DNA of 41,039 nt, taken from the NCBI GenBank assembly GCA_001823165.1, contig MHTT01000010.1:1-41039 (forward strand). The letters are read 5' to 3'. The stretch's first letter is position 1. Every line of letters starts with the position of its first letter. Positions 7,971-36,436 of this stretch are shown one piece after another. Both the position numbers and the translations under genes were made by a program. This stretch comes from Candidatus Wildermuthbacteria bacterium RIFCSPHIGHO2_01_FULL_49_22b. Lineage in GTDB: Bacteria; Patescibacteriota; Minisyncoccia; Minisyncoccales; UBA10102. Under the pieces are notes generated by a model. The model saw only the letters and a list, made by a program, of their open reading frames with translations. It did not search any database and was not told where the DNA came from.

Positions 7971-8012
7971 CAGGGCGCAAAAAACACCCTAAAGGGTGCC
8001 TTTTGCGCCCTG
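7971..8012. terminator. Bidirectional stem-loop between convergent genes
   Basis: cagggcgcaaaa (7971-7982) and ttttgcgccctg (8001-8012) form a perfect 12-bp stem, extended internally by caccct/agggtg, with A/T runs on both sides. Confidence 0.8.
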
Positions 8013-11841: not shown

Positions 11842-11867
11842 GACATTATGTTTTAGAACATAATGTC
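11842..11867. terminator. Hairpin between convergent MFS and ndk genes
   Basis: gacattatgtt (11842-11852) and aacataatgtc (11857-11867) form a perfect 11-bp stem with loop ttag. The right arm overlaps the last ndk codons. Confidence 0.55.
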
Positions 11868-14445: not shown

Positions 14446-14608
14446 CTTTTACCTCCTCTCCTCTGCTCGGCATGCTAGTCGAGAATGATGACGGACGAGA
14501 ACTGTTCTCGGCCGATTTGGTCGCCGAGCGAAGCGCCGACTGGAAAAGTTTAATTTCCTCTCAAGAGAAGCAGTTCGTATCTAGTTTTATGGCTCCGCGG
14601 GCGGGATT

Positions 14609-14648
14609 CGCCCCGTCATTCGACGGGGCGCCCAGTCGCATGACTGGG
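14609..14648. other. Two abutting GC-rich hairpins in a 230-nt spacer
   Basis: cgccccgtc-attc-gacggggcg (14609-14630) is followed directly by cccagtc-gcat-gactggg (14631-14648). They lie downstream of doxX and upstream of the YdcF-like gene. Confidence 0.7.
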
Positions 14649-14675
14649 CGAACCTCTGAAAAAAATCTATCGAAT

Positions 14676-15116
14676 CTATCGTAGAAAGCGACCGAGAAGA
14701 GGAACTTTGCCTTCCAGTCCCCAGATTCTCCCTGCCTTACTAAAGGCCAGCACAAGAAGGGAGAACGCATACACAATATGTTCGTCAACGATATATGAAT
14801 GCTCGCCAACGTACGGAAACTCCAAGACCGGGAAATAATACAGAAACATAAGCAGGGCTCCAAGAATGCCGCTTAAGCGAACACCCACGCCCACAAGAAG
14901 GGAAAGCCCTATGAGGGTTAAGCCCCATTCGTTAAGAAGGTCAGTAAGGGGCAGTATCTCAAGAGAAGCAAACCACTGGTATAATCCAGAAAAGGTTTTT
15001 GCTCCTTTCAGGTATCCTGCCGCTGACCATTCCGGGTTCAGCACCTTGGTGATGCCAGCGTAAAGAAACAGCCATCCTAAAGAGATACGTAGGAAAAACA
15101 GGGAAAAATATTTCAT
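14676..15116 (-). CDS. DoxX family membrane protein
   Basis: MKYFSLFFLRISLGWLFLYAGITKVLNPEWSAAGYL... is a typical DoxX N-terminus, and there are 4 hydrophobic helices. Confidence 0.8.
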   Translation of the reverse strand: MKYFSLFFLRISLGWLFLYAGITKVLNPEWSAAGYLKGAKTFSGLYQWFASLEILPLTDLLNEWGLTLIGLSLLVGVGVRLSGILGALLMFLYYFPVLEFPYVGEHSYIVDEHIVYAFSLLVLAFSKAGRIWGLEGKVPLLGRFLR

Positions 15117-15141
15117 ATTTATGCGAAAACCATTATATTAT

Positions 15142-15903
15142 TTATGTGGCAAGCCATCCTCCGTCAACATAGAAGGTAGCTCCCGTGACATAGCTGGATT
15201 CCTCTGAAGCCAGGAACACGACCATTGCAGAAACCTCTTCTGGCTTTCCGATACGCTGTAAGGGAACTGCGGCAAGCATGGCTTCCATTGCGGCTTTTGG
15301 TATCTGCGAGGCGGCAACCATGGGAGTGTCAATCGCTCCCGGAGCAACCGCATTCACCGTAATGCCAAAAGGCGCCCATTCCACAGCCAGGGTCTCGGTC
15401 ATGCCAATGACCCCTCCCTTGGAAGCAGTATAGTGGGCGCCGCCCGCAATCCCTATTCCGGTTTGCCCTGAAGCAACAGAGGAGATGTTGATGATTCTTC
15501 CCCACTTTTGTTTTTGCATTTCTTTGGCTGCGCGCTGTGCGCACAGGAACTGCCCTTTGAGGTTAATGTGAATGGTTTTTTCCCATTCCTCCTCGCTCAT
15601 TTCAAGGGCCGGCTTTGGAGAAAAGATCCCAGCATTGTTCACTAAGATGTCTACCTTCCCCCATTGGGAAACCGCCGCATCAAAGACGGCATTAATTTCT
15701 TTTTGGTTGGTGACATCCATGGCAAATGCCAGGGCCTCACCCCCGTTCTTTCGTATTTCCTCTGCCACGTTCTCGCATTCCTCTTGGTTTATATCCGTTA
15801 CAACAACCTTTGCTCCTTGGGAAGCTAGAACTACTGCATGGGATTTCCCCATGCCCTGTTTTGCCCCGGTGACCAGGGCAACCCTGCTTTGTAAGTTAAA
15901 CAT
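15142..15903 (-). CDS. SDR family oxidoreductase (FabG/glucose-1-dehydrogenase-like)
   Basis: TGAKQGMGKS (TGxxxGxG), NNAG, and the S...YxxxK triad (ISSVAS...YTASKGG). Confidence 0.9.
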   Translation of the reverse strand: MFNLQSRVALVTGAKQGMGKSHAVVLASQGAKVVVTDINQEECENVAEEIRKNGGEALAFAMDVTNQKEINAVFDAAVSQWGKVDILVNNAGIFSPKPALEMSEEEWEKTIHINLKGQFLCAQRAAKEMQKQKWGRIINISSVASGQTGIGIAGGAHYTASKGGVIGMTETLAVEWAPFGITVNAVAPGAIDTPMVAASQIPKAAMEAMLAAVPLQRIGKPEEVSAMVVFLASEESSYVTGATFYVDGGWLAT

Positions 15904-15904
15904 A

Positions 15905-16534
15905 TTATTCGTAGGTTTTACCCGTGCTCTGCGGCACGTACTCTGGACCTTTATTTAGATAACGGGAGATAAAGTTAGAGATGCGTTTTGTGTCAAGCGT
16001 TCCATCCTTTGGCAAGTCAAAGGCATCCAAGCGCGTCCAGGCAGCCAGCGCAATATCGGTTTCGTTGGCAGAGCGCGGGGTGAGGATGACGCCAAACCGG
16101 CCTGCCAGGAGTTTCTCAAGGGCCTGCACTATCTCGCTGTTCAGGTCAGACCGGTAGGAAACCCATACTCTGCCATGCTCCAAACTGTGCACAATCGCCT
16201 CGTCTGGCTTTTCTTCGTCATAGATGCCGTCTCGCAAAGGGTCTGGCCAGTGGTTCCCGGAGGTCGGAGGATTGGATTGGTATTCCACCCGCGTTCCTTG
16301 TGCAACATGGGTAGCTCCCGCATAGGGTATTTCCATAGAATAGTCCTGTCCCAAGGGCTTTGGGGTTAAGGCCTGCATGCCGAGCCACCCGGCTCCTGCA
16401 ACCGCTGCAATGCCAATCGCCCAGCCCACCAGCTTCTTGGTTGCGCGGAGCCTTCGCGTTCTTCCTATCCCCTCGCGCTTTTCCTGTCGCCGCAACTCCT
16501 TTCTTTCTTTTTTGGAAAGTTCCTGCCCTTCCAT
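15905..16534 (-). CDS. DUF3105 domain protein, N-terminal membrane anchor
   Basis: Lys/Arg-rich N-terminus, a TM helix (LVGWAIGIAAVAGAGWLGM), then NPPTSGNHW and VHSLEHGRVWVSY motifs. The start overlaps the dsbA-like stop (TAATG). Confidence 0.7.
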   Translation of the reverse strand: MEGQELSKKERKELRRQEKREGIGRTRRLRATKKLVGWAIGIAAVAGAGWLGMQALTPKPLGQDYSMEIPYAGATHVAQGTRVEYQSNPPTSGNHWPDPLRDGIYDEEKPDEAIVHSLEHGRVWVSYRSDLNSEIVQALEKLLAGRFGVILTPRSANETDIALAAWTRLDAFDLPKDGTLDTKRISNFISRYLNKGPEYVPQSTGKTYE

Positions 16535-17223
16535 TAGAGTTGAGAGTCAATAATGGATTTCAGCTGGGAATACGGTACCGCTCCCCGTACAAGCACGCCG
16601 TTCACGTAGCTTCCCGGGGTTCCGCTGACCCCGGCCTGAATGCCCTGCTGGTAGTCCTGTTCAACTTTGTTTTGGTACTTTCTGGTGGAGACGCAGTCGT
16701 CAAATTGGGCAAGGTTTACCTCAATCTGCTCGGCCGCTTCACGGTAGAAAGCAGAACCCAAACGCTCCTGTTCTTCAAACATGGCGTCTACAAACTGCCA
16801 AAAGCCATCATTGCCTTTTTGCTCCCACACACATTCAGACGCTTCAGCGGCAGGGCGCGCCTGCGGGTGAAGACCGTCTAAGGGAAAGTGCTTGTACACC
16901 CATCGGACGTCATCGCCATACTCTTGCAACGCCTGCAGAATCGTTGGATGGAACTGCCTGCAAAAAGGGCACTCCAGGTCAGAAAACTCAACCAGCGTCA
17001 TTGCGGCTTCCGGATTCCCCCGAATGTGGTCGTCTTTTGTGATGGTGAAGTCCACGGTGGAACCGTTGCTTTGCACCGCGTCCCTCGCGGTTCCCGCCGG
17101 CAGGGCGGCCGCTGTACGCTCTGGCGTGATATCAAAGCCGCCCGTATACAGAATCGTTCCTCCAATGAAGATTCCTGCCAATAGAATAGCGGCTGGAATG
17201 TAGAAATCTTTATATGTTTCCAT
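16534..17223 (-). CDS. DsbA/BdbD-like thiol:disulfide oxidoreductase, membrane-anchored
   Basis: N-terminal TM helix (IPAAILLAGIFIGGTILY) and a thioredoxin fold with active site CPFC (FSDLECPFCRQFHP). Confidence 0.85.
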   Translation of the reverse strand: METYKDFYIPAAILLAGIFIGGTILYTGGFDITPERTAAALPAGTARDAVQSNGSTVDFTITKDDHIRGNPEAAMTLVEFSDLECPFCRQFHPTILQALQEYGDDVRWVYKHFPLDGLHPQARPAAEASECVWEQKGNDGFWQFVDAMFEEQERLGSAFYREAAEQIEVNLAQFDDCVSTRKYQNKVEQDYQQGIQAGVSGTPGSYVNGVLVRGAVPYSQLKSIIDSQL

Positions 17224-17235
17224 ATCGTTCTCTTG

Positions 17236-18174
17236 TTATCCGTTATCTGCAACCCTACCTTGGCTCTGAAGGTATTCATAAGCAGAGGTTGCGGCCACCG
17301 ACCCTAAAGCGGCGGCGGTAATGTCTTGCTTGAACCTGCCAAAGTACGAGGTAGCGTCCCCCGCGGCAAACACCCCAGGAATATTCGTCTTCATCATGCT
17401 GTCCACTTTAATATAGTTCTTCTCATCTAATGCAAGCCCCAGCTGATTTGCAAGCTTTGTGTCGGGGTCAAACCCTATTTCAACAAACACTCCGTCCACC
17501 GCAAGGTCTTTTGACCCTTGGTACTCTTTGGAAAGAACCAGCTTCCCCAGAAACTTTTCGCCTACAATCTCGGCAACTTCCGTCTCGGTTAAAACCTCAA
17601 CCTTGTCTCCAAGTGCCTTCATGCGCTCTAGATTCACGGGTTCAGCTTGCACCTCCTTTCCTCTCACGATAAGATAGATTTTCTTTGCATACTCGGCCAG
17701 AAAGTTCACTCCTTTTACCGAGGAATCCCCTCCTCCAACTATGGCAACAGTTTTCTTTCCATACAGAGGACCGTCGCACGTCCAGCAGTAGTGCACACCT
17801 TTTCCGGTAAGTTCTTTCTCGTTGGGGAGATTCAGGTGGCGGCGCTGGGAGCCAGTGGCAAGGATAAGCGTGCTGCCTTGAAACTCTTTGTTTGCCGCCT
17901 TTACCACAAAACATCCTCTATCAGAAGAAATCTTCTCTGCCTTTCCCTTCTCAAACACTACTCCTAAGTTCTGTCCCTGTTCTTTCATTGCTTTCATCAA
18001 ATCGTATCCGTCAATGGACAAAATGCCAGGATAGTTCTCAATGATTCCTGCCGTTGCCGTCTCGCCCCCAAACTCCCCTTCCATAACCAGGGTCTCCATT
18101 TTATAGCGCTTGGCGTAGATTGCGGCTGACAGGCCAGCGGCCCCCGAACCTATAATGATGAGGTCATACTTCAT
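17236..18174 (-). CDS. trxB: Thioredoxin-disulfide reductase
   Basis: YDLIIIGSGAAGLSAAIYA (FAD GxGxxG), redox-active CWTCDG, and VAIVGGGDSS (NADPH site). I prefer the ATG at 18174 (MKYDLIIIG); the ORF track extends to a TTG at 18213. Confidence 0.9.
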   Translation of the reverse strand: MKYDLIIIGSGAAGLSAAIYAKRYKMETLVMEGEFGGETATAGIIENYPGILSIDGYDLMKAMKEQGQNLGVVFEKGKAEKISSDRGCFVVKAANKEFQGSTLILATGSQRRHLNLPNEKELTGKGVHYCWTCDGPLYGKKTVAIVGGGDSSVKGVNFLAEYAKKIYLIVRGKEVQAEPVNLERMKALGDKVEVLTETEVAEIVGEKFLGKLVLSKEYQGSKDLAVDGVFVEIGFDPDTKLANQLGLALDEKNYIKVDSMMKTNIPGVFAAGDATSYFGRFKQDITAAALGSVAATSAYEYLQSQGRVADNG

Positions 18175-18410
18175 ATCTGTTCCATTATACATCGCCTCTT
18201 TTACCGTTTGCAAGATAAAAGGCGCTGTTGATCAACCCGATGGGATACCCCTGTCCCGCACCCCGCACTGCCTCTCTCAACCCGACGAGCGCGGTATCGT
18301 TCTCCACGCGCACGGGAGCCCGGAACACGTACTCCAGCTCGCGCTTGAGGGGCTTTCCCACCCAGCTCGTAATGTGCAAGGAGGCGACCAGCATAAAGAA
18401 GATACATGCA

Positions 18411-19247
18411 TTACTCCAAAAGATTATTCCAATCGGTAGAAAACTTCTCCATTCCCTTGTCGGTCAGCTCGTGGAAGATGTCAAAACTCTTCCAGTCCTG
18501 TTCAAGGTTGATTTCTTTGTAGGGAATCTCATGCAAGCCGCTCTTTCCCTCTCCAGACAAAGGCATGCCCTTTTCCGCCCATTCTTTCAGAACCTTTGCG
18601 GGGGAAGTGATGATATCAGAACCCAGCTGAATCGCATAAAGGAAATGGTCCAGGTGGCGCACGGAAGCCGTCAGCACCTGAACGTGGCCGTCCCCTCTCT
18701 TGTACATTTTAATAATATTCGCAATCAAATCCATGCCATTCTCTCCCCTGTCATCGAGACGGCCGACAAAAGGAGAAACAAACACATCACCCTTCCTCAC
18801 CCCTTTAGTGGCAGCATACACGGCAGCTGCCTGCTCTTGCGTAAAGCACAGGGTCATGTTCACCCGCATGCCTTCCCGAACCGCCCTTGCTGCCGCCTGC
18901 AATCCTCCCCTGGTTAGAGGAAACTTAATGTGGGCGTTTGGAATCCAAGAAAACATCATTCTCCCTTGCTCAAGCATTTCTTCTGCCGCGGTATCCTTGT
19001 CTGCGTATACCTCAATGGAGACCGATCCTTGGGGAATCAGGCCTGAAATCTCACGGACCACGTTGTGATAAAACGAGAGAAGTTCCACCTTGGTAAATTT
19101 CCTTCCTGCGGTTTCGGGATTCTTGGAAATCAATGAGGGGTTTGTGGTTTGGCCGTCTAAAAACCCAAGAAGGTTTATTGCTTCTCTTGTTTCCTGTGGG
19201 TCTCCGCTGTCCAAAAAGATTTTGGTGTTGATGTTTTCGGGTTTCAT
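18411..19247 (-). CDS. tal: Transaldolase (short/fructose-6-phosphate-aldolase-type)
   Basis: MKPENINTKIFLDSGDPQETREAINLLGFLDGQTTNPSLISK and the catalytic-Lys context IKFPLT. Its ATG overlaps the pgl stop (ATGA). Confidence 0.85.
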   Translation of the reverse strand: MKPENINTKIFLDSGDPQETREAINLLGFLDGQTTNPSLISKNPETAGRKFTKVELLSFYHNVVREISGLIPQGSVSIEVYADKDTAAEEMLEQGRMMFSWIPNAHIKFPLTRGGLQAAARAVREGMRVNMTLCFTQEQAAAVYAATKGVRKGDVFVSPFVGRLDDRGENGMDLIANIIKMYKRGDGHVQVLTASVRHLDHFLYAIQLGSDIITSPAKVLKEWAEKGMPLSGEGKSGLHEIPYKEINLEQDWKSFDIFHELTDKGMEKFSTDWNNLLE

Positions 19248-19948
19248 GTTGGAATGTCGGTAAAAACATGGACTTCTTTCATTTCCCGCACAATGCGAGC
19301 GGGCGTCTCCCATAACGTTCCTTCCTTTACCAACATACGAGAGAGCGCCTGCCCTTTCTCTTTTCCTGCCATATACACCACAGAAAAGTCAACCTCCTGT
19401 AAAAACGGTATCGTTATGGTCGCCCGCAAGGGATGCTCGTTCCTGGAACCCGCATCATACCCCACTACCCAGTTCTTTCCCTCAAAAAGCTCAGAGAAGG
19501 CCTGCCTATCTTTGGGATAAGGCATGATGCCAAAGGTATGGCCGTCTACCCCCACACCCTGCGTAATCACAACCGTTCCTCCCGGGTGTTCTTCTTTCCA
19601 GGCGCGAATCGCATCTTCAAAGCGCTTGCTAAAAACCTGGATATCTTCTCCTGGTTGCACCCTGGTGTCAATGAAGTATGCCCCGCTTTCCTGCGCTTTC
19701 TGAAAAAAGGATGTTTCAGCTAACTGCGCAAAGTTGTTCGCCTTAGGGTTTTCAGAAAACCGCTCGTCGGTGACACCAACGGTGAGCTTTGGCGGGAAAA
19801 TCGTAATTCGTTCAAGCAATGCCAAGGAAGAGCCGCCGGACAACAAAAACAGCGTCGGCATGCGGGAATGCGCGTCTAATAATTGATTGAGTTTTTGCGC
19901 AGCTGCCTCCCCTGCTTTCTGCTTTGTTGAATATCGTTTCACCTCCAT
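19244..19948 (-). CDS. pgl: 6-phosphogluconolactonase (NagB/Pgl family)
   Basis: TLFLLSGGSSLALLERI, DERF and GVGVDGHT motifs, in a zwf/gnd/tal context. Confidence 0.75.
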   Translation of the reverse strand: MEVKRYSTKQKAGEAAAQKLNQLLDAHSRMPTLFLLSGGSSLALLERITIFPPKLTVGVTDERFSENPKANNFAQLAETSFFQKAQESGAYFIDTRVQPGEDIQVFSKRFEDAIRAWKEEHPGGTVVITQGVGVDGHTFGIMPYPKDRQAFSELFEGKNWVVGYDAGSRNEHPLRATITIPFLQEVDFSVVYMAGKEKGQALSRMLVKEGTLWETPARIVREMKEVHVFTDIPT

Positions 19949-19960
19949 ATGTATACCCTA

Positions 19961-19980
19961 ATTTTCACGATCGTAAAAAT
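19961..19980. promoter_or_regulatory. Palindrome copy A (ATTTTCACGATCGTAAAAAT)
   Basis: 20-bp dyad with one mismatched pair and core ACGATCGT. It lies 13 nt upstream of the pgl start and is flanked by gtataccctaa. Confidence 0.7.
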
Positions 19981-19984
19981 CACG

Positions 19985-20533
19985 TTATACCGGAATTTCT
20001 TTGATGATAAATAAACGGGCATATTCCCACAAATTGTACTCGCGAATCGCTTCTTCCGTTTCACGCTCTACCTTCTTTTTGCAAACCCATATACTCTTTT
20101 GAAACTCCTGGTATCCAAGAGATGCGAGAACGCTGCGAAAAATATCTCTCATCTGCCGCTGTTTTTCCGGCAAATCATACATTACCATCACCATTTTTCC
20201 ATCGTTCCGTTTTTGGCTTTCCGCAAGCTTCCAGCGAATACGGAGCGCCTCTTCCCTGCCCTTTGAAGTAAGCATAACGCCCTCTCCTTGGACTTTTATC
20301 ACTCCTCTTCGCTTCAAATCGTACACCAGCTTGCTGAATTGTTGAGCTGATCGGCGCTTCTCATATTCGCGGCGGAACTGCCGCAACTCCGGATTTACTG
20401 CCTCTTGCATTCCTCTAGGCGCAAGAACCCGATGGAAATCGTTTAATCCTTCCACCGCGCGATATACGTCCCACAAAAATTGTTCAGTAAAAGGAATCCT
20501 CATTTTAGACACGTTTATACGCAACCTTCCCAT
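19985..20533 (-). CDS. PaaX-like transcriptional regulator (winged-helix + Cas2-like ferredoxin-fold domain)
   Basis: The centre, FSKLVYDLKRRGVIKVQGEGVMLTSKGREEAL, looks like a wHTH. The C-terminus, KMVMVMYDLPEKQRQMRDIFRSVLASLGYQEFQKSIWVC, matches the Cas2/PaaX-central beta-alpha-beta pattern. Confidence 0.6.
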   Translation of the reverse strand: MGRLRINVSKMRIPFTEQFLWDVYRAVEGLNDFHRVLAPRGMQEAVNPELRQFRREYEKRRSAQQFSKLVYDLKRRGVIKVQGEGVMLTSKGREEALRIRWKLAESQKRNDGKMVMVMYDLPEKQRQMRDIFRSVLASLGYQEFQKSIWVCKKKVERETEEAIREYNLWEYARLFIIKEIPV

Positions 20534-20570
20534 CTATTCTAATTTCTACGATCGTAAGAATTAGGGTATA
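20534..20570. promoter_or_regulatory. Palindrome copy B
   Basis: ctattctaatttctacgatcgtaagaattagggtata abuts the regulator start codon. The stretch 20533-20564 is identical to copy C over 32 nt. Confidence 0.7.
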
Positions 20571-20610
20571 TCACAATCCTCCTTCGCTTCCCGTGGAACT
20601 TTTTATTCTT

Positions 20611-21150
20611 TTATTTCCTAGTCCGCAGGAATTCTTTTAGCCTGGTTACTGCGATCTTTCTCATGCTTATTTTATTCTTCTTTCTCTGATTCATCTCGGC
20701 GAATGTTTCTGAGTGTCCGTCGGGCAAAAAGATGGCATCCCACCCAAAACCCGAAGTACCTTTTTGTTGAACAATTTTCCCTGCTATTGCTCCCTCAAAA
20801 AAGTAGATTTCTTCGTGGCTTTTCGCATAACCGATAAAAGTTTTAGCCACAACTTTATCATTTCCCAACTTTTCAGCTATCCTGGTCAACCCCTCATTGC
20901 CAATTGACTTCAAAAACCATTTGATAAGGGGTCCCGGCAACCCATTAAGGCATTCTAGATAGAGCGAAGTATCTTCAACTATGAATTCTCCTTTTTGATG
21001 GTTCAATGCTTCTTGAAGTTTCGTTTTAATAATTGCCTTAGCATCAATCTCTTGAATTTCAGGCAAATCAATATCCAACTGCTCAACTTCTGGCAGAATC
21101 GCCTTCACTTCCGCAAGCTTATTTTTATTTCCCGTAATGAAGTAAATCAT
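20611..21150 (-). CDS. rdgB: Non-canonical purine NTP pyrophosphatase (RdgB/HAM1/ITPase)
   Basis: MIYFITGNKNKLAEV, FIVEDTSLYLECLNGLPGPLIKWF and GFGWDAIF motifs. Confidence 0.9.
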   Translation of the reverse strand: MIYFITGNKNKLAEVKAILPEVEQLDIDLPEIQEIDAKAIIKTKLQEALNHQKGEFIVEDTSLYLECLNGLPGPLIKWFLKSIGNEGLTRIAEKLGNDKVVAKTFIGYAKSHEEIYFFEGAIAGKIVQQKGTSGFGWDAIFLPDGHSETFAEMNQRKKNKISMRKIAVTRLKEFLRTRK

Positions 21151-21194
21151 ACTATCCCCTACTGCCTTCCTATATTATCCCAGATTGGAACACT

Positions 21195-21230
21195 CTATTC
21201 TAATTTCTACGATCGTAAGAATTAGAATAG
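21195..21230. promoter_or_regulatory. Palindrome copy C (36-bp near-perfect dyad)
   Basis: ctattctaatttctacgatcgtaagaattagaatag. The arms match except for a ga/ag swap. It lies upstream of rdgB. Confidence 0.75.
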
Positions 21231-21268
21231 AAACTTTCTAGCAGGAGCATGCGCTTATTATATCGTAT

Positions 21269-21286
21269 TTTCTACGATCGTAGAAA
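21269..21286. promoter_or_regulatory. Palindrome copy D (perfect 18-bp TTTCTACGATCGTAGAAA)
   Basis: Verified as self-complementary. It sits between the gnd stop (21300) and copy C. Confidence 0.75.
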
Positions 21287-21299
21287 TCAAGGTATAGAA

Positions 21300-22184
21300 C
21301 TACCTTTTTTCGTTTGGGTTGACGGAATGACCGCCAAACACTGCCCTCAACGTAGAAAGAATCTTGCCCGTAAAGCTGGGGCTTTTCTTTGACTTTATCC
21401 TGAAATCAAGCGCTTCCTTGATGACAGGGGTCGCAATTCCAAGCTCCCGCGCCGTCTTGAGGGTCCATTCCCCTTCTCCGGTATGGGCTACCGTTCCTGA
21501 AACCCTTGCAAGGTCTTCTCCGTATCGCTCGAATCCCTCCTGGAGCCAGTTGGTCAAACGGGAAGTGATGATGCTATTTTGGTTGTACGCCTTAGCAACA
21601 TCTTTCAAAGAAAACCGGAAGGGAGCTTTTTTCAAGAGTGCAAATCCCTCTGCGAGCGATTGGAGCATGCCGTATTCAATGCCGTTGTGCACCATCTTGG
21701 CAAAGTGCCCGGCTCCCGATTTGCCCATGTATCCAGAACGCGTGTCTGAAAGCGCCCGGAACAAAGGTCTTGTTTTCTCATATATCCTCTTTTCACCTCC
21801 CACCATGACAGCAAAGCGCCCCTGCTTTATAGAAATGGGGCCGCCTGAAATCCCGACATCCAGATAGAAGATGCCTTTCCTTTTGAGTACTGCCGCACGC
21901 TTCGCGGAATCCTTGAAAAAGGAATTTCCTCCGTCAATCACCACATCTCCTTTGTTAAGAAGCGGCGTGAGTGAGCGCAGAACCTGATCCACAAGCTTGC
22001 CTGCTGGAATCATGAGCCAGATAATGCGAGGAGGGACCGTCTTTTTGACAAGCTCCGGGAGGGAACCTGCGTTGCCTCGCACCTTTGTGTCAAACGTAAA
22101 CACGTTCCATCGCTTACGTCTGAGTCGCCAAACCATTGGTTTCCCCATCTTCCCCAAACCTATGAATCCAATCTCTTTTTTCAT
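21300..22184 (-). CDS. gnd: 6-phosphogluconate dehydrogenase, short (YqeC/Gnd-like) form
   Basis: IGFIGLGKMGKPM (Rossmann fold), DGGNS, GISGGP, GAGHFAKMVHNGIEYG. 294 aa. Confidence 0.85.
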   Translation of the reverse strand: MKKEIGFIGLGKMGKPMVWRLRRKRWNVFTFDTKVRGNAGSLPELVKKTVPPRIIWLMIPAGKLVDQVLRSLTPLLNKGDVVIDGGNSFFKDSAKRAAVLKRKGIFYLDVGISGGPISIKQGRFAVMVGGEKRIYEKTRPLFRALSDTRSGYMGKSGAGHFAKMVHNGIEYGMLQSLAEGFALLKKAPFRFSLKDVAKAYNQNSIITSRLTNWLQEGFERYGEDLARVSGTVAHTGEGEWTLKTARELGIATPVIKEALDFRIKSKKSPSFTGKILSTLRAVFGGHSVNPNEKR

Positions 22185-22224
22185 ACTTTTCTCTTTCTAA
22201 TCTTGATTCTGCCCTTTAGCCGGG

Positions 22225-23643
22225 CTAAGTTTCTATCACCGACGCTCCCCTAGGATATTGTACCAAAGGAACTCCTGTCTTGTCCCATCCGCGCAAGACG
22301 GCATCAACGAACTTCCAGCTTGCCATGATTTCTTCCGTGCTCACAAACAGGGTCTGGTCGCCCTGGATAATATTTAACAACAGCCGTTCATAGGGATCTG
22401 CAAATTCCTCTCCTTGAAAGGCCTGCTTGTAGTCAAACAAGAAGGCCCGCTCCTCAATAATCATCTCTGGACCAGGTTTTTTTACCCACAAACTCATCTC
22501 AATTCCTTCTTGCGGTTGAATATAGTAGTGCAGAATGTTACGGTAGTGCTTGTTTTCACCAGAGGGACACAGACAGGGGGTTGGATGCCGAAACACCACC
22601 TCAACTTCTACCAAATTTTCTTTCATGCCTTTTCCGCTTTCTAAAATAATAGGGACTCCTTTCCAGGCATCGTTGTCAAGAGAAGTTTGCAAGCGAAAAT
22701 AGGTTTCTGTTTGTGAATGAGGGTCCACATTTTTTTCTCTGGTGTATCCTTGGTACTGGGCTCTTCTCGTGAACTTGCTTATTTCCTTTGACTTCATGGC
22801 AGGGAGGGCTTTGAAAACTTTTACGCGTTCTCTTCTCAAGGAGTCCCCATCGAACGCTCCAGGGACTTCCATGCAAAAGAGGGCAAGCAGTTGAAGGACA
22901 TGATTTTGCCCCACATCCCGCAGCGCGCCTATCCCGTCATAGAAAGCGCCTCGCTCCCCTACTCCTTCTTTTTCAAAAAGACGAATGCTCATACCCTCAA
23001 TTCCTCTTGCATTCCAAGAGTCCTGCAAAAATGAGTTGGAAAACCGAAACGCCAAAATATTCTGCACCGTTTCCTTGCCCAAGTAGTGGTCAACCCGGTA
23101 AATCTGCTCTTCCCGAAACAGTTTTCCTAGCAATTGGTCTAATTCCTGCGCGGTTTTAAGATCCTTGCCAAATGGTTTTTCCACAATGATTCTTGTCCAC
23201 CCTTCTTGTGGACTGCAAGGTTTTGTTAAACCAGAAACAGCAAGGTTTCTCAAAATGATGTGATAGCGCTGAGGGGAAGCTGCGATGTAAAAAAGTTTGT
23301 TGGAACAGATTTTCCATTCATTATCCTTCATGCCCAAAAACTCAGCCAGGTTTCGATACCCTTCTTTTTCTTCAAACACTCCTTGCTGATACACAAAAAA
23401 CCTTGAAAAGGATTGGATGTTCTCAAGGGAATTGCGAACCTTTACCTCTGCCATCTCTCGGACCAGCTGCTGGAACTGTTCCGTGCTCAAGCTGTCTTTG
23501 GAGAAACCGACCACCTGAAACAACGAAGAGAGGTTTCCCTCTTCATAGAGATGAAAGAGCGCGGGAACGAGCTTCCTGCGCATCAAGTCCCCCGTGGCCC
23601 CCAGGATGACAAATACGGTTGGAAGGGTATCCTTGGTGTTCAT
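22225..23643 (-). CDS. zwf: Glucose-6-phosphate 1-dehydrogenase
   Basis: VILGATGDLMRRKLVPALFHL, EKPFGKDL and RVDHYLGKE are signature motifs. Confidence 0.95.
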   Translation of the reverse strand: MNTKDTLPTVFVILGATGDLMRRKLVPALFHLYEEGNLSSLFQVVGFSKDSLSTEQFQQLVREMAEVKVRNSLENIQSFSRFFVYQQGVFEEKEGYRNLAEFLGMKDNEWKICSNKLFYIAASPQRYHIILRNLAVSGLTKPCSPQEGWTRIIVEKPFGKDLKTAQELDQLLGKLFREEQIYRVDHYLGKETVQNILAFRFSNSFLQDSWNARGIEGMSIRLFEKEGVGERGAFYDGIGALRDVGQNHVLQLLALFCMEVPGAFDGDSLRRERVKVFKALPAMKSKEISKFTRRAQYQGYTREKNVDPHSQTETYFRLQTSLDNDAWKGVPIILESGKGMKENLVEVEVVFRHPTPCLCPSGENKHYRNILHYYIQPQEGIEMSLWVKKPGPEMIIEERAFLFDYKQAFQGEEFADPYERLLLNIIQGDQTLFVSTEEIMASWKFVDAVLRGWDKTGVPLVQYPRGASVIET

Positions 23644-23652
23644 TCTGCCATT

Positions 23653-24828
23653 CTATGATGATCTTCGCGCCGCATCAATCCGTGCTGCCGCCAACCGCAG
23701 GGCAACCGCTCTCGGATTTTCCCCTTTCTTCATGCTTTCTTCAAGCACCTTTCGCGTACTGTCTTGTATCCTTCGCTCCACCGTACGGAACATATCTCTT
23801 GGGTTATACCCGCGGTATTCGGCATACGAGCTGATGACCCCTCCCGCGTTCGCCACGAAGTCCGGAACGATAAGGATGCCCCGCTTGTGAAGCTCGTCTT
23901 CCACGGATTCTGGCATGGGGATATTGGCCCCCTCCACGATGACCTTCGCTTTGATGTTGTCTTTGTTCTTCTCGTGAATGACATCTGTGACCGAGGCCGG
24001 GATAAGGATGTCCACATCAAGGCCCCAGAAGTCCTCTGGAGAAATTTTCCTGCCCCCCTTGTATTCGGTGATGGGGGCCTTTTTACTCATTAACTGGCGC
24101 ATCTGCTTTTTCTCAAAGCCGTTAGGCGAATATACCGCGCCCTTGGCGTCCGCTATGGCAACCACCCTGGCCCCCATGTCGGACAGCACACTCCAGGTAA
24201 AACTTCCCACGTTTCCGAACCCATGAATGGCAACCGTGCTTTCTCGAAGATCCAGTCCTTTTAACTCAGCGGCAATTCTGGTTGCGTGCGCCACTCCAAA
24301 CCCGGTGCTCCCGAACTCATGGGGAATGCCGCACTGCTCAACCGACCCTCCTTTACCGAACATGAGCATGCAGAGCTTTGCGGGTTTTCCCGTAGCTGAC
24401 CTCCAGTTTCCCGTAGCCTCCACGAACCACTGCATCTCCCGGTCTCCCGTGTTGACGTCCGGGCCCGCGATGTATTTTTTCGGGGTAAGCTCCGCAATTG
24501 CCTTGGCGTACGCTTGCACGTACTGCTTTTTTAAAAAATCGGGGCCTCCCTTTTTACCCGCCGAAGCCTCGGCGGAGGCGGGCCACACAATGCCTCCTTT
24601 TGCTCCCCCGAACGGGAGCCCGGCCAGGGAATTCTTAAACGTCATGGCCCGCGCCAGGCGCCGGACCTCTTGCTCCGTCACGTCGGGGGTCATCCTGATG
24701 CCTCCCTTCCCCGGCCCCAGAACCATGCTGTCAATCACTAAAAATCCGGTCATCCCCAAAGCCGGGTCATACACCCTTATTACAAGCTCGGGTCCCCACT
24801 TGTCATATGCTTTTTCTTCCATAATCAC
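23653..24828 (-). CDS. Glu/Leu/Phe/Val dehydrogenase family (glutamate dehydrogenase-like)
   Basis: GPGKGGIRMTPDVT...FKNSLAGLPFGGAKGGI and HGFGNVG (Rossmann fold). Confidence 0.9.
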   Translation of the reverse strand: MIMEEKAYDKWGPELVIRVYDPALGMTGFLVIDSMVLGPGKGGIRMTPDVTEQEVRRLARAMTFKNSLAGLPFGGAKGGIVWPASAEASAGKKGGPDFLKKQYVQAYAKAIAELTPKKYIAGPDVNTGDREMQWFVEATGNWRSATGKPAKLCMLMFGKGGSVEQCGIPHEFGSTGFGVAHATRIAAELKGLDLRESTVAIHGFGNVGSFTWSVLSDMGARVVAIADAKGAVYSPNGFEKKQMRQLMSKKAPITEYKGGRKISPEDFWGLDVDILIPASVTDVIHEKNKDNIKAKVIVEGANIPMPESVEDELHKRGILIVPDFVANAGGVISSYAEYRGYNPRDMFRTVERRIQDSTRKVLEESMKKGENPRAVALRLAAARIDAARRSS

Positions 24829-25628
24829 AGATAATTGAGCAACGCCTCGTAATTAATGAAATCAAACAGCCGATAGGCGGCTCCCAGCCACCAGGCAAAC
24901 TTGTTCGTGAACATGACGATACCAAGGAATATCAGGAACGCGCCGCCTGCGACCCCGACCCAGTTCAAATACTTTCCCAGTTTGGTGAGATGTGCGGAAG
25001 CCCACCCGATTCCCAGGGCAACCGCCAAGAAAGGAACGGCTAATCCCAAAGAAAACACCATGAGCAAGAGGGCCCCTTGCCCCACTGTGGCAGAGGAAGC
25101 CGCCAGGGTAAGAACGGAGCCCAAGATGGGCCCCACGCACGGGCTCCAGCCCAAGGCAAAAGTACCCCCAAACAAAAAGGAGGTGCCGGGAGTCCCCGGC
25201 TTTAATCCCCGTGCAAGAGACACCTGTCGCTCATTTAACAGCAAGCTGAATGGAAAAATTCTATAGAGATTCAGCCTCCCTTGCGTAAGGGAGGATATTG
25301 CTGGAACCAGAAGAAACAACCCGAATAAAATAACAAAAACGCCGCCGATTTGCGCAATCACTCCCCGGTACTGGAAGAATAATCCTCCTCCCAATCCAAA
25401 TAAACTCCCCAGGATAATGAATATGGCGCTAAATCCAAGAACATAGAACAGGCCGTTTAAAAAAATCCTAAGCCGAGCTCCTTTCGCCCTCGCAGGGTCT
25501 TGTAAATCCCTGGCTGAAGTTCCAGAAATAAAGCTCAAGTATCCCGGCACCAGGGGCAGGATGCAGGGAGCCAAAAAAGTAAGGATGCCAGCAATAAATG
25601 CGGGGATAATAAGACCAAGAGGGTCCAT
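24825..25628 (-). CDS. ccdA: Cytochrome c biogenesis/thiol-disulfide transporter CcdA (DsbD TM domain family)
   Basis: FIAGILTFLAPCILPLVPGYLSFISG and a second GWSPCVGPILGSVL motif, with 6-7 TM helices. Its stop overlaps the gdh ATG (ATGA). Confidence 0.9.
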   Translation of the reverse strand: MDPLGLIIPAFIAGILTFLAPCILPLVPGYLSFISGTSARDLQDPARAKGARLRIFLNGLFYVLGFSAIFIILGSLFGLGGGLFFQYRGVIAQIGGVFVILFGLFLLVPAISSLTQGRLNLYRIFPFSLLLNERQVSLARGLKPGTPGTSFLFGGTFALGWSPCVGPILGSVLTLAASSATVGQGALLLMVFSLGLAVPFLAVALGIGWASAHLTKLGKYLNWVGVAGGAFLIFLGIVMFTNKFAWWLGAAYRLFDFINYEALLNYL

Positions 25629-25668
25629 AGATTACACTATAACGTCTACGGTAAAGCCAAAACAGCAT

Positions 25669-25836
25669 TCATATGTTTTCTGGGGCTTGCCCGTGTGAGG
25701 TAATCTCCAGGTTGCAGCTGTGGTGCGCCACGCACCATGCCTCGCACTTCTCGGCCAGTTCTCTTGTCTCGTATCGGTACCCGCACGCCTCGCATATATA
25801 CTCTTTTTTACCCTCTTTTTCGGCCTCTTTGACCAT
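25669..25836 (-). CDS. Cys-rich 55-aa protein (zinc-ribbon-like; not in the ORF track)
   Basis: My own translation gives MVKEAEKEGKKEYICEACGYRYETRELAEKCEAWCVAHHSCNLEITSHGQAPENI, with the pattern CxxC...CxxxC..HH.C. It starts 10 nt after the grx stop. Confidence 0.55.
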   Translation of the reverse strand: MVKEAEKEGKKEYICEACGYRYETRELAEKCEAWCVAHHSCNLEITSHGQAPENI

Positions 25837-25846
25837 AGTAATCGTG

Positions 25847-26083
25847 CTACTTTATCCTCAAAAGCTCTAAAAGCTTCTTTTCGTCAAAGCCAACCACGAT
25901 GCTGCCTCTCACATCAATGACGGGAACACCGAGCTGTCCAGACTTTTCCACCATAGCGTCTCTGGCCTGCTCGTCTTTCGCAACGTCCTTTTCTTCGTAC
26001 TCAATGTTGTTTTCCCTGAAGAACTCCTTTGCTGCCTTGCAGTACACGCACGTTGGCGTGGTATAGATGGTTACGTCTGCCAT
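25847..26083 (-). CDS. Glutaredoxin-family protein (NrdH/YruB-like)
   Basis: VTIYTTPTCVYCKAAKEFF (CxxC) and GVPVI. 78 aa. Confidence 0.9.
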   Translation of the reverse strand: MADVTIYTTPTCVYCKAAKEFFRENNIEYEEKDVAKDEQARDAMVEKSGQLGVPVIDVRGSIVVGFDEKKLLELLRIK

Positions 26084-26094
26084 ATGTTTTTTGC

Positions 26095-26406
26095 TTATTG
26101 AATAATACTCATGACCTTTTTCACCAAGGGATCATCTTTACGCAGCTCATAGCAAATCATCTTTCCCATGCGTTCCCTGTGCGCCAGCTCCACGAACTCC
26201 AGCAGGCGCAGCTGGTGGGAGGCGGCTGCAACCGACATGCCGCATACTTTTGCTACGTCGGTCACGCACAGGTCCTTTTTTTCGGAAAGCAGGCGGAAAA
26301 TCTTGAGCCGGGTTGGGTCTCCCAGCGCGGCAAACACCAAAGGTAGGCGGTCTTTGTCTCCCCGAAACGATTTTTGTATTCTCACGAGCTCTTTTTGCGC
26401 CAGCAT
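26095..26406 (-). CDS. ArsR/SmtB family transcriptional regulator
   Basis: LFAALGDPTRLKIFRLLSEKKDLCVTDVAKVCGMSVAAASHQLRLL is a classic ArsR wHTH, with Cys in the alpha3 region. Confidence 0.9.
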   Translation of the reverse strand: MLAQKELVRIQKSFRGDKDRLPLVFAALGDPTRLKIFRLLSEKKDLCVTDVAKVCGMSVAAASHQLRLLEFVELAHRERMGKMICYELRKDDPLVKKVMSIIQ

Positions 26407-26410
26407 CCCA

Positions 26411-26980
26411 TTATTTGCTCACTATGTTATCTCTCCCCCATCGAAGGGTTTGGGCCATCCATTCTAACTCATCAAGGAATCCATTGATCCCTTCCAGATA
26501 TGCTTCATCTTTCAATTCCCCCTTTGGGCCAAACGTGTTTTGCACGCTTGGGAAATTGAGATCGGCGGAAATAACCACAAGCCCCAGCTCTCGCATCACG
26601 GGAATCATATTTTCAATGACTCTGGCGCCGCCCCAGGGACCCGCTGAAACCCCTACCAGACCAACTGCCTTGTGTCTGTACTCTGGCAAGAGAAGGTCAA
26701 GCGCCGCTTTCAAAGGACCGGGATAGCCGTGATTGTATTCCGGGGTCACAATCACAAGTCCATCTGCCTTGCTCATGGCATCCCGCCACTCCGGGAACAG
26801 ACCTTTTACTGCCTGTCCGTAGTCATCTTGGGGAAACTTGAAATCCCCAACATTAAAAAGCTGTATTTCCAAGTCCTTTCGACTCTTCATTTTCTTCACC
26901 AAGAGCTTGGCAACATTCTCTGATTGTCTTCCTTCTCGGTTTGTTCCCAGAATAATGGGTATAAAAAGCTTTCTCTGCAT
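26411..26980 (-). CDS. NAD(P)H-dependent FMN reductase family oxidoreductase
   Basis: IILGTNREGRQS and LVIVTPEYNHGYPGPLKAALD are flavodoxin-like reductase motifs. Confidence 0.85.
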   Translation of the reverse strand: MQRKLFIPIILGTNREGRQSENVAKLLVKKMKSRKDLEIQLFNVGDFKFPQDDYGQAVKGLFPEWRDAMSKADGLVIVTPEYNHGYPGPLKAALDLLLPEYRHKAVGLVGVSAGPWGGARVIENMIPVMRELGLVVISADLNFPSVQNTFGPKGELKDEAYLEGINGFLDELEWMAQTLRWGRDNIVSK

Positions 26981-35554: not shown

Positions 35555-36436
35555 ATGGCTGTTTTTCTTATTCCTTTTCTCATTATTCTTGGAATCTTTG
35601 CCTTTGAAGCTAGAGACGAGCTCGTAGGCCGGCTTGATTTTCTGTTGCCAGATTTTCGCTTGCCTGTGCGGGAAAGCGAGCCCTCTGCGGCCGCGCCTCC
35701 CCAGCAAAGCATCCTGCGGCAGGGGCCTCCGGAGGCCCCTTCTCCCCCTTTGCAGGAACAAGGAGCGAACGTGTATGCTGACTGGATTGAGATTTCCAGC
35801 GTGCGCAGGCAAGACCCCTACCTTATCACCCTGCGCACCGACATCCCAAAAGGAAGCGAGCTCATCCTCACGGGCTGGTCGTTGGAAAGCAGGGTGCAAA
35901 CCTTCAAGGTCCCCCAGGGAGTAAAGCTGGTCCCAGCTGGCCTGGATGGGGCGGTTTTTGCCCCCATAGTCCTGGAATGGGGCGACAGCGTAAAGATTTC
36001 AGGGGCGCAAAACCCTTTCAAGCCAAAGTTCAGCTTCAGACCCAATGCGTGCTTCGGCTATCTCAAAGAAACCACGGAGTTTCCGGTTTCGGTTCCCTCT
36101 TCCTGCCCCAGTGACATTCCGAAAATAGAAGGCGTAAGCCACCTGTCCCCTGCCTGCCAGGACTTCATTCTGGATTTTGACCGGTGCAAAGAGCCGCCCC
36201 CGTATCCTGCAACCTCGTCTTTCGCGAATGACTTGCAGTGCAAGAACTTCTATGAAAATCTGAAGTTCCAGCTTTCCTACGCAGGGTGCGTCAAAACCCA
36301 CAAAACAGAGGATGACTTCTTTGACAACGAATGGCACATCTACGTTAACGAGGAAGAGCGCCTCATTCGCTCCACGCACGACCGCATCCTGCTCAAAGAC
36401 CCAGATGGGGTGATTATTGACGAGTACGTTTATTAG
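35555..36436 (+). CDS. Membrane-anchored, Cys-rich extracytoplasmic protein with lamin-tail-domain-like ends
   Basis: N-terminal TM helix (MAVFLIPFLIILGIFAF), a Pro-rich linker, then VYADWIEISS...ELILTGWSLES and the C-terminal DRILLKDPDGVIIDEYVY (LTD-like). It has 8 Cys. Confidence 0.55.
   Translation: MAVFLIPFLIILGIFAFEARDELVGRLDFLLPDFRLPVRESEPSAAAPPQQSILRQGPPEAPSPPLQEQGANVYADWIEISSVRRQDPYLITLRTDIPKGSELILTGWSLESRVQTFKVPQGVKLVPAGLDGAVFAPIVLEWGDSVKISGAQNPFKPKFSFRPNACFGYLKETTEFPVSVPSSCPSDIPKIEGVSHLSPACQDFILDFDRCKEPPPYPATSSFANDLQCKNFYENLKFQLSYAGCVKTHKTEDDFFDNEWHIYVNEEERLIRSTHDRILLKDPDGVIIDEYVY

Follow-up and report, generated by a model that had tools for sequence, protein, structure and literature searches.

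Palindromes beside a small winged-helix/Cas2-like protein of Patescibacteria are its predicted, paralog-specific binding sites

The window, by which we mean the whole stretch of 41,039 nucleotides analysed, carries on its minus strand, in this order, zwf, gnd, the palindromic sites D and C, rdgB/Ham1, site B, the gene of a putative DNA-binding regulator, site A, pgl and tal; this gene order agrees with the original prediction made for the locus. rdgB/Ham1 (20611-21150, minus strand) encodes a non-canonical NTP pyrophosphatase and lies between sites C and B; in the close relative L001, this position is taken by an ORF that is unrelated to it and matches no family. Downstream of site A follow pgl, tal, an ORF of 69 codons and the genes for a thioredoxin reductase-like protein, a DsbA-like protein, a DUF3105 protein, an SDR and DoxX (14676-19948, minus strand), which are tightly packed and co-directional and, judged by their spacing, probably form one operon. 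Sites thus precede pgl-tal(-trxB...), the regulator gene and rdgB, and no palindrome copy is found upstream of zwf or gnd. The regulator had been proposed to be the only DNA-binding protein in the cluster, but an ArsR-type gene at 26095-26406 encodes a further HTH protein nearby. Within ±10 kb of the regulator there is no cas1, no other cas Pfam family and no CRISPR array, there are no paa genes among the Pfam-annotated genes, and neither an HUH transposase nor an integrase is present near it.

The sequence ACGATCGT occurs four times in the window, always in sites A-D and, as originally claimed, nowhere else. The shuffle expectation is 0.19, four copies were reached in 0 of 100 shuffles, and the 16-mer with up to three mismatches also gives four matches, compared to 0.05 expected. 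Site A has a core dyad at 19961-19980 (ATTTTCACGATCGTAAAAAT, centre 19970|19971) and extends as an imperfect dyad to 19951-19990; its left arm overlaps the stop codon of the regulator gene (19985-19987), its right arm is 2 nt from the ATG of pgl (19948), and L001 carries it at the equivalent place. A −10-like TAnnnT hexamer, TAGGGT (19955-19960, minus strand), at +11 to +16 of the site lies 6 nt upstream of the pgl ATG, which is a leaderless geometry, and the family-wide geometry suggests a promoter role for it. Site B (20534-20570, centre 20551|20552) is conserved in L001, L002 and L003, has 31 bp in common with site C and is presumed to be the autoregulatory operator of the regulator. A candidate promoter of the regulator gene (20514-20542, minus strand) consists of a −35-like TTAGAA (20537-20542), which sits within the right arm of site B, a 17-nt spacer and a −10-like TATAAA (20514-20519), followed by the ATG 10 nt further on; the pair was not called by the consensus scan, and its assignment is conjectural. 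Site C (21194-21231, centre 21212|21213) is a near-perfect dyad of 36-38 bp with only two mismatched pairs in the 36 bp from 21195 to 21230; the ATG of rdgB (21150) follows 62 nt downstream of it, and it has TAGAAT at +11 to +16 (21197-21202). Site D (21269-21286, centre 21277|21278) is a perfect 18-bp dyad that begins 13 nt past the gnd stop codon, with TATAAT at +16 to +21 (21257-21262); L001 has the variant TTTTCCGATCGTAGAAAA at this position. In all four sites a TAnnnT hexamer is found at +11 to +16 in gene direction.

The regulator gene had been read as an ORF of 182 codons, of which the first 10 do not belong to it. M11 is where all homologs begin, and L001, whose B-regulator-A block has 87% nucleotide identity to that of the window, has an in-frame stop after the upstream ATG; the gene therefore starts at 20503 and not at 20533 and encodes 172 amino acids (19985-20503, minus strand; the numbering used here). 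As a consequence, the statement that site B abuts the start codon no longer holds: its centre lies 48 nt upstream of the true ATG. The predicted architecture, a winged helix-turn-helix (wHTH) followed by a Cas2-like domain, was confirmed, although not by every profile suggested at the time. PaaX_M (PF20803) matches with E = 2.6e-16 (59.9 bits, cutoff 24) over amino acids 108-177 of the 182-codon ORF, whereas PaaX_N (PF07848) gave no Pfam match at E ≤ 0.01 and Pfam CRISPR_Cas2 remained just below its cutoff (22.9 vs 23.8); TIGR01573 reached 27.9 (cutoff 24.5), over 46 residues only. The wHTH is present at the level of the fold: an AF2 model (pLDDT 82) matched Cas2, PaaX (8a39, 180 columns) and the wHTH of DtxR/IdeR in Foldseek. 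The effector domain PaaX_C (PF08223) is absent, and the protein ends directly past the Cas2-like domain. Searching the PDB by sequence with this one protein gave nothing meaningful, and a sequence-profile search with the family gave no match to PaaX; in the PDB, Cas2 and VapD come closest in both sequence and fold, and the closest sequence matches, which are Cas2 proteins, include the RNase SSO8090. The Cas2-type aspartate (D110) is invariant in the family.

The regulator of the window belongs to a large family of Patescibacteria, which forms 2,329 clusters when grouped at 50% identity and has 3-5 paralogs in each reduced genome, with paralog-specific palindromes, each beside a different housekeeping gene. 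In the relatives, palindromes (median length 38 bp) are found both upstream and downstream of the gene. Across 77 genome loci, the density of palindromes with a score ≥12 is 3.44/kb near the gene (up to 150 bp on its upstream and 130 bp on its downstream side) and 0.075/kb elsewhere, a 46-fold enrichment, and at 22 loci the upstream and downstream sites have an identical 8-mer core. A homolog with 45% identity, encoded between a Mur ligase gene and FemAB, has ACGATCGT dyads closely upstream and downstream of its gene, and paralogs within one genome have different palindromes. Nearest-neighbour proteins have the same central 6-mer in 30 of 55 cases; this frequent switching does not argue against recognition but allows a test by independent contrasts. 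That the palindromes are the cognate sites of the regulator, as originally predicted, is strongly supported by these comparisons: the sites accompany the gene when its genomic context is an unrelated one, and they covary with residues of the protein.

The covariation is spatially ordered. Residue 136, in the Q-x-S motif, tracks the central base pair: among 99 unique proteins, Q goes with G|C in 40, K or R with A|T in 41 and H with C|G in 6. The rule holds for 38 of 39 cases in an independent set, and the switch between K/R and Q/H is seen in 18 of the 20 closest non-overlapping pairs that differ in their centre. Residue 113 tracks positions ±2-3, with E at xCGx|xCGx (34/34), Q at AAG|CTT (8/8) and K at AAC|GTT or CAA|TTG (10/10). 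More generally, positions +1 to +3 covary with residues 136, 113 and 115, positions +4 to +6 with residues 116, 120 and 123, and positions +13 to +16 with K58, L59, Y61 and D62 of the predicted recognition helix. The protein of the window, with E113 and K136, predicts xCGA|TCGx, which is the site observed. Comparative evidence thus shows the pairing and the tracking of base pairs by residues and, from about 100 relatives, it points by covariation to a Cas2-like domain that would read DNA sequence in addition to the helix-turn-helix. If this code is true, the exchange K136Q would move the preference from ACGATCGT to ACGGCCGT.

The order in which residues 136, 113 and then 58-62 follow the site from the centre outwards makes it probable that a single dimer covers all of the ~38-bp palindrome, its paired Cas2-like domains seated at the dyad and its wHTHs contacting the arms. 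The protein would form a homodimer through its Cas2-like domain, whose dyad-proximal face, made up of the D-x-P-E113 turn after β1, the helix residues 115-123 and the Q135-K136-S137 hairpin, would read the central ~12 bp; the two winged-helix domains would read the outer arms at about ±12-18. The arms contain −10-like hexamers that point, as putative promoter elements, towards the genes downstream, and the bound protein would then occlude RNA polymerase and repress its own promoter (B), the promoter of pgl-tal-trxB... (A) and those of rdgB (C and D). Dimerisation, the promoter assignments and repression rather than activation are what we infer from the arrangement of these elements. Family-wide, the arm has the consensus T-G-n-T-A-T-A-w-T at +13 to +21, and the regulator ATG lies at +26 to +31, a leaderless spacing, in 12 of 47 loci; others have a second TGTATAAT farther downstream. 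A scan for sigma-70 and terminator consensus sequences called neither a promoter nor a terminator at the four sites of the window, so that statements on promoters rest on this positional conservation in the family. The −10-like arm is symmetric and could also reflect protein contacts instead of promoters. Given the −10-like elements in the arms, autorepression together with gating of pgl-tal and rdgB would be the likely function. Taken as a whole, with binding mode and repression included, the explanation that the ACGATCGT dyads are predicted sites of a minimal, 172-residue PaaX-like sequence-specific DNA-binding protein is in our view probable.

What do the copies outside the locus say about this explanation? 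A scan with a strict 20-mer gave at least 1-6 copies per MAG among the matches listed, the MAGs being fragmented; the contigs of the window organism were not among the matches of the metagenome scan, whose outcome therefore bears on other organisms only. The possibility of a dispersed repeat, raised in the original prediction, is borne out in so far as some genomes have the dyad at 3-6 intergenic places on different contigs (among the matches listed), but the dyad is tightly associated with orthologs of the regulator. A REP/RAYT-like or cassette system is one alternative. The flanked protein would then maintain or spread the palindromes as dispersed repeats, with its Cas2-like domain as a nuclease or recombination factor at the dyad; the palindromes would be the points of exchange for the pal-gene-pal unit and for genes beside it, and the overlap with promoters would be secondary. 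The gene does lie between its own, paralog-specific repeats, D110 is invariant, and the copies are near-identical over 36-54 bp within a genome while differing between genomes. Such near-identity is more uniformity than is usual for operators. Among 93 remote extended palindromes of the ACGATCGT type, 12 have convergent genes on either side (at least 7 of them robustly) and 9 fall within ORFs, places where no promoter is expected, and this counts against the promoter reading; the proportions of tandem, convergent and divergent placement are about those of intergenic regions in general. The B-regulator-A block common to the window and L001 has a four-fold-site identity of 0.74 in the regulator gene, compared to 0.28-0.42 in gnd, pgl and trxB, which suggests a cassette exchanged recently, and the gene between C and B differs between the two. 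General mobility of the cassette was rejected by the comparison of synonymous sites: window/L001 and perhaps L016/L017 are the exceptions to about 30 further syntenic pairs, in which regulator and neighbours diverge at equal rates, a sign of vertical inheritance. This is a weak argument against a REP-like system, since RAYTs, too, are vertically inherited. Against it also stand the low copy number (not the tens to hundreds of REPs), the missing HUH transposase or integrase, the occurrence of D-x-P-E and Q-x-S in non-catalytic PaaX_M domains as well, and the promoter and leaderless geometry, which argues for a transcriptional role, and we regard such a system as unlikely. Its more specific form, a self-maintaining system of palindrome-protein pairs in which the Cas2-like domain keeps nuclease activity, nicks the dyad centre and drives gene conversion, dispersal and gene exchange, would account for the near-identical copies, those between convergent genes, the pal-regulator-pal block that was shared recently and the different genes found between C and B; it is quite unlikely but, if true, would mean that Patescibacteria have built a system of REP/RAYT or integron type on a Cas2 fold.

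The original prediction saw in the regulator a dedicated control of NADPH-generating sugar oxidation, responding to sugar phosphates, NADP(H) or acyl-CoAs. In this lineage and its 87% relative, the sites do precede pgl-tal within a zwf-gnd-pgl-tal-trxB redox neighbourhood, and PaaX is under effector control (PMC9493321). However, zwf and gnd have no site upstream, the regulator lacks the C-terminal effector domain of PaaX, rdgB is replaced in L001, and the pentose-phosphate location is found in the lineage of the window and its 87% relative only. A scan for relatives of the zwf of the window, aimed at other pentose-phosphate clusters with such a regulator, gave one distant match. When the genes downstream were tabulated in related MAGs, as had been suggested, no common function emerged: 67 homologs and 57 ACGATCGT-type sites lie beside housekeeping genes that are unrelated in function, among them FemAB, tRNA synthetases, FtsW, SecA, FtsK and UvrA/C, and the idea of a conserved regulon was dropped for this reason. 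The pentose-phosphate connection appears to be incidental, and a dedicated metabolic regulator is very unlikely. Still less probable are hairpins in RNA or DNA that, as bidirectional terminators, would end or insulate transcription where genes are closely packed, the protein being unrelated to them or binding or cleaving the RNA as a Cas2/VapD-like ribonuclease. Many copies do start directly past (0-15 nt) a stop codon, as do D after gnd and A, which overlaps that of the regulator, some remote copies have A-run/T-run flanks or lie between convergent genes, and the closest PDB sequence matches include an RNase. The terminator scan was negative at all four sites, though, and the stems are AT-rich, loop-less and mostly without a T-run. 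Hairpin stability explains neither the conserved A-tract and G-n-TAT nor the residue-to-base code with its A|T or G|C centre, and residues of the wHTH covary with arm positions. Mismatches are G:T in 42 and A:C in 36 cases, and thus have no sense-strand RNA bias; the lack of a G:U excess also speaks against hairpins, though none would be expected from bidirectional ones.

The preferred reading, a sequence-specific regulator with its operators, finds its closest parallel in PaaX of E. coli and Pseudomonas (PDB 8A39, 3L09), which likewise begins with a wHTH and continues with a Cas2-like PF20803 domain. The operator of E. coli PaaX, TGATTC(N27)GAATCA, spans 39 bp, and the repressor excludes RNA polymerase and autoregulates; no structure of a PaaX-operator complex exists, according to a review (PMC9493321). 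The span, with outer half-sites, is similar to the 38-bp median of the putative sites described here, and so are autoregulation and promoter occlusion to the role inferred for the regulator, which has a site upstream of its own gene; covariation of wHTH residues with the arms would fit outer half-sites as well. In contrast, PaaX has about 305-316 residues with PaaX_C, the sequences of the operators are unrelated, and the regulator is not linked to paa genes and has several paralogs per genome. Moreover, its palindrome has a dyad through the centre, and this centre covaries with residues of the Cas2-like domain.

With Cas2/VapD the regulator has in common the ferredoxin-like fold, a β1 that ends in a conserved Asp, and the Q-x-S-V-W/F motif, but it is fused to a wHTH, and the ±10 kb around it contain neither cas1 nor a CRISPR array. 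In Cas1-Cas2 complexes, duplex DNA is touched by the Cas2 dimers; the contact made by the regulator appears to be sequence-specific, unlike that of Cas2. NCBI records that name proteins of this family CRISPR-associated endonuclease Cas2 are probably misannotated. REP/RAYT systems resemble the locus in a single-copy gene between its own palindromes, paralog-specific repeat families, intergenic dispersal and vertical inheritance. Yet RAYT is an HUH/Y1 transposase whereas Pfam, NCBIfam and Foldseek assign wHTH and Cas2-like domains to the regulator, its palindromes number 2-6 among the matches listed, and, unlike REPs, they are loop-less dyads that overlap promoter-like elements. Proteins of the Lrp/AsnC (FFRP) family are likewise small and combine a wHTH with a ferredoxin-like domain (β-α-β-β-α-β) that drives oligomerisation; the two-domain architecture is similar and there is a weak Foldseek match (2ia0), but no sequence relationship. 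The RAM domain of Lrp/AsnC binds amino acids and, to our knowledge, is not known to read DNA.

Literature searches found no description of a Cas2-like domain reading base sequence, of this family or of its palindromes. If a Cas2-type fold serves to read DNA in a sequence-specific way, this role is new for the fold, and it suggests a way in which repressors of the PaaX type may bridge operators of such unusual length. The findings also flag a probable, systematic misannotation as Cas2 in public records, and the orthogonal pairs of paralogs and sites offer a possible toolkit of compact programmable repressors. For the Patescibacteria themselves, the family may be one of the main families of transcription factors, and since its sites are predictable from sequence, regulons could be predicted in organisms that are beyond culture.

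The 41,039-bp window contains four copies of the motif ACGATCGT, at 19967, 20548, 21209 and 21274 (sites A to D), against an expected mean of 0.19; none of 100 dinucleotide-preserving shuffles got to four. A window scan with the 16-mer TTCTACGATCGTAGAA, allowing at most three mismatches, returned the same four sites (0.05 expected). The palindromes lie where the original prediction had placed them, and its statement that the motif is found nowhere else in the 41 kb was borne out. The surrounding genes are on the minus strand, in the order zwf (22225-23643), gnd (21300-22184), rdgB/Ham1 (20611-21150), the regulator (19985-20503, 172 aa), pgl (19244-19948) and tal (18411-19247), followed by a tightly packed series on the same strand: a 69-aa ORF, thioredoxin-reductase-like, DsbA-like, DUF3105, SDR and DoxX. 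Site D begins 13 nt past the gnd stop codon. Site C precedes rdgB by 62 nt, site B precedes the regulator, and site A occupies the stretch between the regulator stop codon and the pgl ATG. The wider region 14676-26980 is redox-themed and has its genes on one strand. It also contains glutaredoxin, DsbD, glutamate dehydrogenase, FMN reductase and an ArsR-type regulator (26095-26406); genes for NADPH supply and for thiol redox seem to be grouped here. Palindromes or hairpins outside the ACGATCGT family, for example CAGGGCGCAAAAAACACCCTAAAGGGTGCCTTTTGCGCCCTG, are found at 7257-7276, 7971-8012, 11842-11867, 14607-14652 and 35721-35740; these could serve as terminators or as sites for other regulators.

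The regulator matches the Pfam model PaaX_M ('PaaX central Cas2-like domain') with E = 2.6e-16 and Cas2 models weakly; the Pfam search gave no match to PaaX_N, and the PaaX C-terminal domain is absent. An AlphaFold2 model based on 48 homologs (pLDDT 82) has an N-terminal helical/winged-helix half and a C-terminal beta-alpha-beta-beta-alpha-beta half. In Foldseek the former matched the winged helix of DtxR/IdeR, the latter Cas2 structures, and the whole protein E. coli PaaX (8a39; 180 aligned columns). A sequence profile searched against the PDB found Cas2 proteins and did not find PaaX. The wHTH plus Cas2-like architecture proposed originally is therefore upheld, and we would call the protein a minimal PaaX-like protein rather than a PaaX. 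Its length had been overestimated at 182 aa. All homologs have 172-190 aa, and their alignments to the 182-aa ORF begin at its residue 11; in an 87%-identical relative an in-frame stop follows the upstream ATG. Because of this we assign the CDS to 19985-20503; site B therefore does not abut the start codon, as had been assumed from the over-long ORF. The regulator comes from a member of the Patescibacteria, and its large family comprises 2,329 representative clusters (E ≤ 1e-3), named 'PaaX' or 'CRISPR-associated endonuclease Cas2' in public records. Two homologs that carry the latter label in NCBI records (P0004 and P0005) are wHTH-fused and have no cas1 or CRISPR array nearby; the Cas2 naming of such proteins in Patescibacteria MAGs is likely a systematic misannotation.

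The palindromes travel with the gene. In the 87% relative (L001, L002, L003) all four sites are kept at the corresponding positions. A 45%-identical homolog, with a Mur ligase gene on one side and FemAB on the other, has kept ACGATCGT dyads directly upstream and downstream; at L004, a third such dyad (AATTCTTACGATCGTAAAGAAATT, 7330-7360) is intragenic: it lies some 650 bp upstream of the regulator, within the Mur ligase gene. Across another 77 genome loci, the density of loop-less palindromes scoring at least 12 was 3.44 per kb close to the homolog (up to 150 bp upstream or 130 bp downstream) versus 0.075 per kb in the rest of these loci, and in 22 of them the upstream and downstream copies have an identical 8-mer core. 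Their median length is 38 bp; at L023, L046 and L038 perfect symmetry extends over 48-56 bp in some of the flanking palindromes, more than the ~38 bp expected per dimer. A single genome can contain three to five paralogs that each have a palindrome of their own, and the centres vary among paralogs (ACGATCGT, ACGGCCGT, GCGATCGC, GCGGCCGC, AAAGCTTT, AAACGTTT, GCAATTGC and others). The genes beside the homologs have unrelated housekeeping roles (FemAB, tRNA synthetases, FtsW, SecA, topoisomerase and ligase, among others). Judged from these sequences, the palindromes belong to the protein and not to a pathway.

Comparison of protein alignment columns with palindrome positions, counted from the dyad centre (marked by a bar), revealed the strongest covariation in the Cas2-like domain, not in the winged helix. 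Residue 113, next after the invariant D110-x-P112, is E with the centre xCGx|xCGx (34/34), Q with AAG|CTT (8/8) and K with AAC|GTT or CAA|TTG (10/10). Residue 136, flanked by the invariant Q135 and S137, corresponds to the central pair: K or R to A|T, Q to G|C and H to C|G. Among 99 unique proteins, Q went with G|C in 40, K with A|T in 39, R with A|T in two and H with C|G in six, with a handful of exceptions. A further set of loci, retrieved independently, confirms this rule (K136 with A|T or T|A, 19/20; Q136 with G|C, 19/19); in that set E113 went with CG in 27 of 30. As a control for ancestry, closest non-overlapping protein pairs of at least 50% identity that differ at the palindrome centre were compared: 18 of 20 had K/R in the A|T member and Q or H in the G|C member, and the switch at residue 136 must therefore have happened many times. 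The map is ordered in space along the half-site, from K136/E113 at +1 over E113/Q115/K136 at +2 and +3, R116/R123 at +4 and D120 at +5 and +6 to K58, L59, Y61 and D62 of the predicted recognition helix (residues 53-65) at +13, +15 and +16. For the window protein (E113, K136) the code predicts xCGA|TCGx, and the site found is ACGATCGT.

In Cas2 dimers, Asp residues of beta1 are near the two-fold axis, and a reading of the dyad centre by residues 113 and 136 would fit this placement. In the simplest model, one dimer would span the whole ~38-bp palindrome, its Cas2-like domains paired over the centre and a winged helix placed on each arm. The E. coli PaaX site, TGATTC(N27)GAATCA, spans 39 bp; PaaX represses through exclusion of RNA polymerase and autoregulates, and a structure of PaaX bound to its operator has yet to be reported (PMC9493321).

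The half-site consensus, averaged over 98 flanking sites, consists of the core (+1..+4), an A-tract (+8..+10) and T-G-n-T-A-T-A-w-T (+13..+21). The last element corresponds to the extended −10 promoter consensus and is mirrored in the opposite arm. In 12 of 47 loci the regulator ATG is at +26..+31, the spacing expected of a leaderless mRNA begun at that −10; most of the remaining loci have a second TGTATAAT shortly downstream of the palindrome. All four window sites have a TAnnnT hexamer at +11..+16 in gene direction: TAGGGT at site A, followed by 6 nt and the pgl ATG, TAGAAT at sites B and C, and TACGAT at site D, which also has a perfect TATAAT at +16..+21 (21257-21262). Upstream of the regulator, TTAGAA-17 nt-TATAAA ends 10 nt short of the ATG. 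Since the arms contain −10-like elements, bound protein would occlude promoters, leading to autorepression at site B and to gating of pgl-tal(-trxB...) via site A and of rdgB via sites C and D. A simple consensus scan called none of these candidate promoters, and the symmetry of the arms may stem from protein contacts instead of promoter function. Six nt beyond the TATAAT of site D, an ATG at 21250 (minus) opens, in leaderless geometry, a 16-codon ORF (MLLLESFYSNSYDRRN*, 21200-21250) that passes straight through site C; it could be a leader peptide or chance.

Palindromes around a gene could also be dispersed repeats that are kept or spread by the flanked protein, as in REP/RAYT-like systems. 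Scans of species-representative genomes (20-mer) and metagenomes (22-mer) hit, among the matches listed, almost exclusively Patescibacteria-like DNA, where the motif forms the core of palindromes 36-44 bp long and several MAGs have three to six copies on different contigs. Copies within one genome are nearly identical and the arms differ from genome to genome. From the matches listed, 93 unique remote copies were classified: 43 between tandem, 8 between divergent and 12 between convergent genes (at least 7 with long ORFs on either side), 9 inside ORFs and 21, unclassifiable, at contig or block edges. The convergent and intragenic copies do not fit a plain operator, and neither do the many copies starting directly after a stop codon or the lack of a common function among the genes facing them. 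On GC-rich contigs labelled Puniceicoccaceae (CAYVUQ01; L143, L165, L118), an extended ACGATCGT-type palindrome, GCGACAATTATTTTCACGATCGTGAAAATAATTGTCGC, is within long ORFs, a setting unlike the usual intergenic one in Patescibacteria. Mismatches in the palindromes (42 G:T versus 36 A:C) have no G:U bias, which counts against a sense-strand RNA hairpin; bidirectional hairpins stay compatible.

The block from site B to site A also speaks for mobility. It is 87% identical in nucleotides between the window (19953-20562) and L001 (1700-2309), and identity at four-fold-degenerate sites is 74% in the regulator but 28-42% in gnd, pgl and trxB; the proteins encoded by these three genes are only 50-59% identical. 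Between sites C and B, L001 has an unrelated ORF (1067-1648, no Pfam match) in place of rdgB and has retained the flanking palindromes. This looks like cassette replacement and suggests that the cassette was recently exchanged or converted at the palindromes. The regulator diverged at the pace of its neighbours in about 30 other syntenic pairs, and the family is therefore mostly vertically inherited. Altogether, we regard a REP/RAYT-like reading as unlikely; the pairing of regulator and operator is supported more strongly than could originally be known, by sites that accompany the gene and covary with its residues.

Control of NADPH-generating sugar oxidation, the role first proposed, is not supported as a property of the family, whose members adjoin unrelated genes. 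In the window it is supported only in part: sites precede pgl-tal and rdgB but are absent upstream of zwf and gnd. The pentose-phosphate setting appears to be incidental. A full-text literature search returned no description of the family or its palindromes, nor of a Cas2-like domain that reads DNA. The family is predicted to represent a PaaX-type repressor cut down to two domains, with operators that are palindromic throughout and a specificity code that can be read from the Cas2-like domain.
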